Origin: a virus
Taxonomy: Duplodnaviria; Heunggongvirae; Uroviricota; Caudoviricetes
Virus record (IMG/VR): IMGVR_UViG_2529292728_000036
Strand: one strand, 5' to 3'
DNA length: 23,895 bases
Positions 6,001-9,000 of the stretch are shown one piece after another; position 1 is the stretch's first letter, and each line of letters starts with the position of its first letter. A program made the position numbers.

Positions 6001-9000
6001 GGTGATCGGGGAGAGAGTTTCAACAGAAATTTGAGTTGTCATAATGACGCCCTCTGGTGGTTTCTTAATAACTCACCACCGACGACGCCAATCGTCTGGT
6101 GGTGAACTGTGCAGGGTTGGCGTAACCGGGAAACCGACCGGCGCGGATCTCTCCGCCCCCACACAGCCCACCATAATTCAGATGTGCGCGTGCATACGAC
6201 AATAAAAAACACGCTCGCGGCGTGTATCTGTCGCGGTCTCTATCCAGGACGCCAATCCCGACGCCAGATTTTGCTGGCGCGTGAGGAATATAGCCCCGAA
6301 TAAATCATCGCGTCAATCACCTTGTTTTCCTCGCACGATGTCTTAGCCACCGGATATCCCACAGGTGAGCCGTGTAATTGAAGGTTTTTACGTCAGATTC
6401 TTTTGGGATTGGCTTGCGTTTATTTCTGGAGCGTTTCGTTGGAAGGTATTTGCAGTTTTCGCAGATGATGTCGGTGATACTTCGTCGCTGTCGCCTCATG
6501 CCGCCCTCCTGACGCCCTGCCCGATCGCCATCAATGCCGCTTTGGATACAGTAGTAAACATTCGTCGAGGACTGATGAACGGTCGCCAAATCAGCAGCAT
6601 GGAGCCTTTGCTGTTTCCCTTCTTCTCCAGCCCTGTCGATGGTTCGATAAAATTAATCCGTCCATCAGTGATGATGCGAACTTCGTCAACACTCTCCAGA
6701 GCCTTGCTGAACCATCCGACTGACATATCCTCTGGCACAAGCATAACTACCGTCTGTCGCTGTTGTATGCACTGCTCAGCGGCTTTTTCCACCCACGGCC
6801 TGATATTGCTGTACGGTGGGTTATTCCAGATTGCACCGTGGCTTACCCACTCAGAATTGAGCGCGTCGTCGGCCTCAGTTAGCCAGTGAGCGCACAGAGC
6901 ATTTTTGTCGCTCGCTGCCGAATCCAGCCAGAATCCAAACTCAATATCCAGTGCATCAAAAAGCCAAAGCGGCGTTTGCCAGCAGTCCTTGTCGTGTGCT
7001 GGCGTATTTGATTTGATAGTCATGCAGCCCTACCTTTTCGTTGTGACCATTCATACTCTCGCCGGGAGTCATCACTCCACCGCACGTTGCGCTCTGAGCC
7101 GAACCAGAACATGATTTCGATAAGCTCAGTCATGCTGGCCTTCCGCATTTTGCTGGTACGCACGCCAAGCATGACAACGCCACCGTCGATACCAGGCACA
7201 CTTCGTTGCTCCAGTTTTTTGGTCTTAAGCCACAGGGCAGTGAACAGGTCTTTCCAGTCTTCCGGCGCCAGCCGTTGACCATGCCATAGCACCTGACGCG
7301 AAACATCGTTCAGCATCGGCCACATGCGGTCATTCTGCGCTTTGCTGCGCTTGGGTTCTTTAACGTGGACTTCGTGGGGTGACTTGTCGTCGATGGGTAG
7401 TGAGAGAATGGCGTCTATGGCGTTATTTCTGATTGCTTCGTTGCGAAGCAGAAAGGTTTGCTTCATCTCCTGCTCTCCGGTTCCATTTTTCAGCCGCCGC
7501 AGCAACTGATGGTGCCCATGCCCCCCTGGCTTCACAGAGGTCACATTCTGCATAGCCCCACACATCAATATTTATTCCGGCCTCAACCCACAGACGAGCA
7601 TTACCGCCGCAAAACGGACATTCTTTTAGCTTTGGCTGGGTTAATGATAGGTCGCTCATGCTCACTCCTTCACTTTAAATCCAGACTCCGGATAATTCTG
7701 TTGCGCTGAAACTCATTGTTGAGTTTGAACAACCGTCGAAGAACACGGTCACGCGGATAGCGTCGTGCGGCAGGTGAATGCTCATACAACTCATCAAGCG
7801 GCAAACTGGACGATGAACGATACCGATACCAACGCACCAACTCCTCACGAAAATTAGCCCTGACAAGCTCAGCTATCGTACTCATTTCTTAAAACCTCCT
7901 CAAACGCATTCTGACGCATTTTTCATTCTCGCTGCTTATTGGCATGCCTTGCACGCGTTTACCTCGCTACAGAGCGATTGTGATGCCTTAAAAGCGATTT
8001 ATTGAAGTGATATTTGCTTAATCGAAATTCTTTTCTTTGATTCCTGCGGCCCTGATGGCTTTCATTACTGCAATTACCGTTTTGTCACGCCCATCCTCAT
8101 AACCCATCGCATAAGCACCTTCTTCACCATCTTTCCAAAAGTCGTCATTCGATTCGGGCCAGTCGATATCCAGTTCAATAGCAGAGCGCGATGCCTGCCA
8201 TATCACCCAGGCAAACTCTTTTAATTCATCGTCTCCCGTGAACTGGCTTTTGTCTTTTGACCACCAGTTTTCAAACTGTCGGTAGCTATCGTTCACTTCC
8301 CTCTCCCCCAAATAAAAAGGCCTGCGATTACCAGCAGGCCTGTTATTAGCTCAGTGATGTAGATGGTCATCTTTTAACTCCATATACCGCCAATACCCGT
8401 TTCATCGCTGCACTCTGGCGACACTCCTTAAAAATCAGGTTCGTGCTCATCTTTCCTTCCCGTTCTTCCCTGGTAGCAAACCGGTAATACACCGTTCGCC
8501 AGACCTTACCATCAATGACCAGGATTCCTGCCCGCGCCATTTTAGCCGCAGCCTGATTTATGCTGGTTACGGTTGCGCCTGTTACCGCGGAAACGTCCTG
8601 TGCACAGAAGTTCTTATGCGTCCCGAGGTAATGAATAATTGCCTCTTTGCCCGTCATACACTTGCTCCTTTCAGTCCGAACTTAGCTTTAATTTCTGCGA
8701 TCTTCGCCAGCGCCTGAACACGATTTAGAGGTCTGCCGCCCATGACAGGAAGTTGTTTTACTGGTTCAGGTATCGTCTCACCACGGTTAATTCGTGCTGT
8801 CATACAGGTCAGTTCATCGGCAGCCTTGCGCCGTAATTCCGCGTCAGTCAGCGCATTGGCCCGCATGTTCTGGTACAGGTTGGTAACCAGCCAGTAGTGC
8901 GCGTTTGATTTCCACGGATAAGACTCTGCATCCGGATACAGGCCACGCTTCCGGCAATACTCGTAAACCATATCAACCAGCTCGCTGACGTTTGGCAGTC

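Follow-up and report, generated by a model that had tools for sequence, protein, structure and literature searches.

Does the nin region of a Stx1a-converting lambdoid prophage carry genes that act together against host restriction, or are the genes found there independent accessory genes that lie close to each other? The question is raised by a stretch of 23,895 nucleotides, here called the window, in which a gene for an orphan DNA methylase and a gene for a Cys-rich, Lar-like protein lie on the minus strand on either side of the recombination gene ninB. The original prediction read the two as an anti-restriction cluster consisting of a Dam-family N6-adenine methylase, whose target sequence was given as unknown, and a zinc-ribbon protein of the Lar type. 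Taken as a whole, the evidence is very probably best explained by two independent and known accessory genes, encoding M.EcoVT2Dam and a Lar-family protein, that do not form a joint unit. The earlier reading is thus partly supported: it had the families right and the target wrong, its cluster is unsupported, and the anti-restriction function is putative.

The prophage and its nin region

The whole window is 100% identical to a segment of the chromosome of E. coli O111:H11 88-19539 (NZ_CP077491.1, 5296384-5320278), and it covers one half, from int to stx1, of a Stx1a-converting lambdoid prophage. On this identical chromosome segment the RefSeq/PGAP annotation places the Lar-like gene, ninB, the methyltransferase gene and ninE at the coordinates given in Table 1, under the names "Lar family restriction alleviation protein", "recombination protein NinB", "phage N-6-adenine-methyltransferase" and "NinE family protein". 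Dozens of Stx1 and Stx2 phages carry the 1.7-kb region at 99.9-100% identity. VT2-Sakai, whose record labels the methylase gene dam, is one of them; the methylase is 100% identical to VT2-Sakai Dam (BAA94133.1), and the Lar-like protein is 100% identical to VT2-Sakai H0103. As the nin region of a Stx-converting phage the segment is a textbook case, identically annotated in public records, and both genes are already known and routinely annotated as accessory genes of these phages, with nothing new in their presence here.

Read 5' to 3' on the minus strand, the gene string is DUF7301, Lar-like, ninB, methyltransferase and ninE (Table 1). The span from 6496 to 7659 (minus strand) that drew attention to the locus runs from the stop codon of the 175-aa ORF to the ATG of the 78-aa ORF, and an AGGAG lies 5 nt upstream of this ATG. 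NinB matches the full profile (positions 1-131) of PF05772 at 165.1 bits (cut-off 23.8, E 9.1e-49), and NinE matches PF05322 at 147.8 bits (cut-off 25, E 8e-44). The predicted arrangement, with a methyltransferase bearing an NPPY motif and joined by stop/start overlaps to ninB and ninE, and with a Lar-like ORF that runs over the ninB start, is present at the locus, and we confirm this structural description as accurate in every detail. A plus-strand ORF at 6365-6889, antisense to the methylase gene, was rejected as a shadow ORF; the minus-strand genes account fully for the region.

Table 1. Genes and gene overlaps of the nin-region segment, in window positions
Feature	Position	Strand	Description
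DUF7301 gene	7670-7885	-	71 aa; PF23975 91.5 bits; directly upstream of the Lar-like gene
Lar-like Cys4 zinc-ribbon gene	7423-7659	-	78 aa from ATG; PGAP WP_001281772.1; = VT2-Sakai H0103
Overlap of Lar-like 3' end and ninB start	7423-7466	-	44 nt, ninB starts at 7466; read from the sequence
ninB (Orf-family recombination mediator)	7020-7466	-	148 aa; PF05772, PHROG 72, PGAP
Overlap of ninB TGA and methyltransferase ATG (ATGA)	7020-7023	-	read directly from the sequence
Orphan phage N6-adenine DNA methyltransferase	6496-7023	-	175 aa; = M.EcoVT2Dam
Overlap of methyltransferase TGA and ninE ATG (ATGA)	6496-6499	-	read directly from the sequence
ninE	6317-6499	-	60 aa; PF05322, PGAP

The methylase: family, target and role

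Profile searches place both proteins above the curated thresholds of their families, at scores that chance does not explain. For the methylase, PF05869 ("Dam") is matched at 218.4 bits against a curated cut-off of 28.1 (E 6e-65, profile positions 1-167 of 169), the equivalog TIGR01712 (phage_N6A_met) at 265.9 bits against a cut-off of 97.05, and PHROG 111 at E 9e-88. The catalytic motif reads W66-N-N-P-P-Y71. In an alignment of the window protein with 25 homologues from Enterobacterales (59-80% identity), the residues N68, P69, P70, Y71, T17, P18 and D34 are invariant in all 26 sequences, and the NPPY, QTP and LD-AAS elements do not vary, so that the motif context is intact.

The name Dam is right for this protein in one sense and misleading in another. 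Among Pfam families only PF05869 matched the methylase, and the methylase shows no sequence or profile similarity to the E. coli/T4 Dam family (PF02086); a PDB sequence search returned no chain related to it. In the AlphaFold model obtained with the 26-sequence alignment, pLDDT is 74 and pTM 0.76, and the putative cofactor loop 34-48 is poorly defined; Foldseek found no PDB match to this model at E<=0.001. Because PF05869 is the sole Pfam match and neither the PDB sequence search nor Foldseek gave a relative, the methylase is, as judged from its sequence and from fold evidence that is moderate, a member of a separate, minimal and phage-specific family that shares Dam's reported site. What it has in common with the alpha-class enzymes E. 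coli Dam, T4 Dam and DpnM (PF02086) is this reported GATC site, N6-adenine methylation with (D/N)PP(Y/F) chemistry and, putatively, the class I SAM-methyltransferase fold. The label "Dam-family" therefore holds for the reported specificity and not for the family, which is the phage PF05869/TIGR01712 one.

The closest known system is M.EcoVT2Dam itself, the product of dam in VT2-Sakai, which corresponds to L0094 of 933W and has HP1 Orf13 and T1 M.T1 as relatives. The order ninB-dam-ninE and the relative coordinates are the same in VT2-Sakai and in the window; the window prophage carries stx1a in an O111:H11 chromosome, whereas VT2-Sakai carries stx2 in O157:H7 Sakai. A passage in Forde et al. 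(PMC6602927) gives 5'-GATC-3' as the target of M.EcoVT2Dam, citing Radlinska & Bujnicki 2001 (Acta Microbiol Pol 50:161). Since the window protein is identical to M.EcoVT2Dam, described as GATC-specific, the statement that its target is unknown was wrong, and the GATC specificity of the window methylase is a reported one that goes back to a secondary citation for the identical protein. The frequency of GATC was also considered as a signature of the enzyme and discarded as uninformative: the window contains 61 GATC sites where about 93-100 are expected, and this mild depletion (observed/expected about 0.61) is like that of other 4-nt palindromes such as AGCT (0.64) and GGCC (0.69).

As in lambda, transcription from pR reaches the nin region after N antitermination, which makes the methylase gene and the Lar-like gene lytic-cycle genes. 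The stop and start codons of the methylase gene overlap ninE and ninB, and for this reason the methylase is most likely translated, in lytic growth or upon induction, as a member of a ninB-dam-ninE unit. There it would most likely keep the fast-replicating phage DNA fully GATC-methylated where host Dam is limiting or absent, and such full methylation could be relevant to Dam-dependent processes of the phage or the host. The only enzymes from which the methylase would protect progeny are those that cleave unmethylated GATC; given that E. coli hosts are Dam+, any defensive benefit would be limited to those hosts and enzymes in which unmethylated GATC is cut. In a Dam+ host it is not evident that a GATC methylase would serve against restriction. 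The role of phage Dam enzymes has been called "still not well understood" (PMC7556043), and another review says likewise (PMC12707154).

The Lar-like protein and its relation to RalR

The Lar-like ORF passes the cut-offs of the Lar-family profiles, with 41.3 bits for PF14354 (cut-off 28.6, E 1.8e-10) and 62.3 bits for TIGR03655 (cut-off 39.6), and it matches PHROG 599, "Lar-like restriction alleviation protein", at E 9e-39. It has two CxxC pairs, C14/C17 and C39/C42. A PDB sequence search with the protein gave no relatives and only weak matches to the eL43 zinc ribbon (E about 0.01). A word-indexed homologue search returned 6 proteins, and the structure predicted from a 4-sequence alignment is of low confidence (pLDDT 57), too poor to add support, so that the Cys pattern and the profile matches are what speaks for a zinc-ribbon fold.

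The family prototype is Lar of the Rac prophage, which was credited with restriction alleviation (King & Murray 1995, as cited) and is now annotated as the endodeoxyribonuclease toxin RalR, with the sRNA antitoxin RalA (PMC4041452). Rac Lar/RalR (E. coli K-12 b1348) belongs to the same Pfam/NCBIfam family as the window protein, and BLASTP aligns the two at 36% identity over 58 aa (E 9e-10). The four Cys of the Lar-like protein align with RalR cysteines and W59-N60-R61-R62 aligns with the RalR sequence WNKR, so that both proteins carry two CxxC pairs as well as a C-terminal WN(R/K)R motif. Compared with RalR, the window protein is extended by about 5 aa at its N-terminus and has a 15-aa tail encoded by ninB; the two genes also differ in position, that of the window lying in the nin region and ralR beside recET/xis. 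Homology to Rac Lar suggests that the Lar-like protein may act on type IA restriction-modification enzymes, relieving their restriction and stimulating their modification; in the literature searched there was no experimental report on the Lar-like protein of Stx phages. Lambda has its own restriction alleviator, Ral, which is encoded in the pL operon. Pfam, PHROG and NCBIfam scans of the Lar-like protein list no Ral-family match, and the relation to Ral, which alleviates type IA restriction by speeding modification (PMC12707154), would be one of functional analogy alone.

The junction between the Lar-like gene and ninB

The 44-nt overlap encodes the tail of the Lar-like protein, which ends in ...GDEANLSASQRSNQK. 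Endings of the form ...(L/I/F)(S/H)ASQRSNQK are common to this protein and several unrelated or divergent proteins encoded upstream of ninB. Among the bearers of ...ASQRSNQK are a Salmonella Lar-family protein (P0126) that is only about 50% identical to the window protein, an unrelated Cys protein (L106) and a fused version of the 8018-type protein in three loci (L089, L140 and L163). It is the ribosome-binding site and the first codons of the window-type ninB allele that encode the tail, whereas at loci with a lambda-type ninB the upstream genes end in ...EETNV or ...HEKTNL. Since unrelated upstream genes carry the same tail and the lambda-type ninB gives other endings, the comparison of these sequences indicates that tail and overlap belong to a recombination junction linked to ninB, not to the Lar domain. 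In the reading preferred here, the position upstream of ninB is a mosaic slot that takes several exchangeable cassettes, the Lar-like gene among them, and the overlap of this gene with ninB is a by-product of the shared junction.

Distribution of the two genes

The comparison covered IMG/VR loci that encode relatives of NinB, of the methylase or of the Lar-like protein, with the neighbouring genes located by tblastn. Methylase loci were counted where the methylase was at least 99% identical and the upstream flank at least 750 nt long (n=79). This Lar-like gene is found in 10/79 of these loci and is absent from the other 69, counts that are indicative, the IMG/VR loci being highly redundant E. 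coli prophages and not independent samples. Where the Lar-like gene is absent, 46 of the 69 loci have the lambda-type ninB allele, 13 the window-type allele and 3 another ninB allele or none, and 7 have other small Cys-containing ORFs. These seven ORFs were considered as members of the Lar family and rejected, since they remain below the Pfam threshold (18.9 vs 28.6 bits for the L106 type, no hit for the L152 type). The custom HMM used to look for other Lar-family genes upstream of ninB is partly circular, two of its matches being members of the seed.

The Lar-like gene also occurs where the methylase does not. One locus (L220) has the order Lar-ninB-ninE with no methylase, and in another (L206) a truncated ninB and rusA-type genes come after the Lar-like gene, again with no methylase. 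Close relatives of the window Lar-like allele nearly all come with the methylase too, and the linkage of the two genes within the Stx-phage lineage is strong. The DUF7301 gene accompanies this Lar-like gene in 80/80 loci and is present without it in 3. Among complete E. coli genomes, some part of the 1.7-kb block is found in 2232, of which 485 hold at least 80% of the block.

Discussion

Two readings of the single proteins compete with the one preferred here. The phage methylase could have a regulatory or replicative role and no defensive one, for instance in the stability of lysogeny, in the timing of promoters or packaging, or in avoiding the action of MutH or SeqA on hemimethylated phage DNA. 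We regard this as a serious possibility, though one that falls somewhat short of an even chance. Stable lysogeny of 933W is reported to need host Dam, and the Dam encoded by Phi24B has been proposed as a supplement (PMC3342100); P1 needs GATC methylation at pac (PMC12707154); and GATC sites, mildly depleted as they are, are available in the window. The argument is nevertheless one of analogy with other phages, and the "CM2" methylase of Phi24B (PMC3342100) may differ from the window methylase. It also overlaps with our preferred reading, in which the methylase keeps phage DNA GATC-methylated and which already permits such a role. The Lar-like protein, for its part, could be a non-specific DNase toxin of the RalR type, possibly in a type I toxin-antitoxin pair, and not a restriction alleviator. 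The present annotation of the Rac prototype as a toxin with an sRNA antitoxin would favour this, as would the identity to RalR and the Cys4/WN+R core that the two proteins share, but with the RalR equivalog NF007260 (type I TA DNase toxin) the window protein reaches 27.6 bits, far below the cut-off of 113, and its gene lies in the nin region, unlike ralR, which is next to recT/xis. Between 7400 and 7900, Rfam at gathering thresholds gave no match to an sRNA family, a result to be read with the proviso that Rfam may lack RalA. We consider the toxin reading unlikely.

The two remaining readings concern the locus as a whole. In the first, the methylase and the Lar-like protein are a coordinated anti-restriction cluster, perhaps together with a DpdA-like gene, that jointly shields phage DNA from host restriction. 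There are reasons why this was attractive: both family names are tied to restriction evasion, the two genes belong to a co-directional, overlapping gene string, about 400 nt from each other, the methylase is present with almost every close relative of this Lar-like allele, and orphan phage methylases have been described as a "Trojan horse" protection strategy in a review (PMC12707154). The DpdA-like candidate itself stands in part, in that the ORF at 19649-20404 of the window matches PHROG 887, "queuine tRNA-ribosyltransferase", at E 2e-102; the same ORF has no Pfam match. Against the cluster speak the 69 loci with the same methylase allele and no Lar-like gene, the two loci with a Lar-like gene and no methylase, and the position of ninB between the two genes. 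E. coli host Dam already methylates GATC, so the methylase would add little protection in its normal host, and the literature searched holds no demonstrated anti-restriction phenotype for either protein in a Stx phage. A coordinated cluster is in our judgement quite improbable. Still further from likely is the reading in which the region upstream of ninB is a dedicated exchange slot for diverse small, often Cys-rich proteins, inserted by way of a conserved junction that runs into the ribosome-binding site and start of ninB, and in which the Lar-like protein works with the NinB/Orf recombination mediator or tunes ninB translation instead of acting on restriction enzymes.

We therefore return to the reading of two independent accessory genes in the delayed-early, pR-transcribed nin region of a Stx1a-converting lambdoid prophage. 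With counts that are indicative, the methylase and the Lar-like gene are separable mosaic modules and not a functional or co-inherited unit, and they are not supported as a cluster. Given that the genes assort independently and that no anti-restriction phenotype has been demonstrated for either, the label "anti-restriction cluster" should not be propagated. The value of the analysis lies in its corrections to how the locus is described: the target of the methylase has already been reported as GATC, the methylase is no homologue of host Dam, and the cluster label is dropped.

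Mosaic exchange at ninB

The slot upstream of ninB is a mosaic exchange point, as seen in the window (7423-7466), in the IMG/VR loci L089, L106, L140 and L163 and in the Salmonella Lar-family protein P0126. In all of these, unrelated or divergent genes upstream of ninB have in common a C-terminal ...ASQRSNQK tail, whose coding sequence is the ninB 5' junction itself; with the lambda-type ninB allele, the upstream-gene tails read ...EETNV or ...HEKTNL instead. Recombination within ninB is exemplified by one relative, L206 (2595-3228), in which ninB is truncated or fused past about residue 120. 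The next genes there are already of the rusA type and the Q side, and both the methylase and ninE are missing.

Other features of the prophage

The RNA elements isrK, C4 and a1/b1, all of them directly downstream of ninE, make up with the two antirepressor genes that come after them a module like immI of P1/P7, here located in the nin region.

Other features annotated in the window
Feature	Position	Strand	Remarks
AgvB sRNA family	1203-1262	+	Rfam; just downstream of stx1AB
STnc100 sRNA family	1264-1477	-	Rfam; just downstream of stx1AB
KilAC antirepressor	4512-5233	-	frameshifted; follows Ant
Ant antirepressor	5308-6042	-	after the RNA elements
C4 antisense RNA	6095-6178	-	Rfam
isrK	6204-6280	-	Rfam; directly downstream of ninE
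a1/b1 targets of C4	6241-6293	-	Rfam
300-aa ORF	11941-12843	+	adjoins cI-like repressor; PGAP 'hypothetical protein'
IS3-family transposase	14008-15221	+	inserted element, early-left region
ALIL pseudoknot	14289-14405		Rfam; in IS3-family element
251-aa 'hypothetical protein'	19649-20404	+	exo-xis side region; PHROG 887 match
201-aa protein	20592-21197	+	domain matches: dATP/dGTP pyrophosphohydrolase (PF04447) + DUF551

The product of the ORF beside the repressor matches PHROG 6287, 'BstA abortive infection system, replication inhibitor' (E 2e-131), and a Pfam search gave no match for it. On the exo-xis side, the 251-aa product matches PHROG 887, 'queuine tRNA-ribosyltransferase' (E 2e-102), and has no Pfam match at E<=0.01. 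The DpdA-like candidate that the original prediction had put forward for that region is presumably this protein.

About 5% of the window is absent from most otherwise identical prophages, and this portion is probably the IS3-family insertion, which has partial or pseudogene fragments on its flanks.
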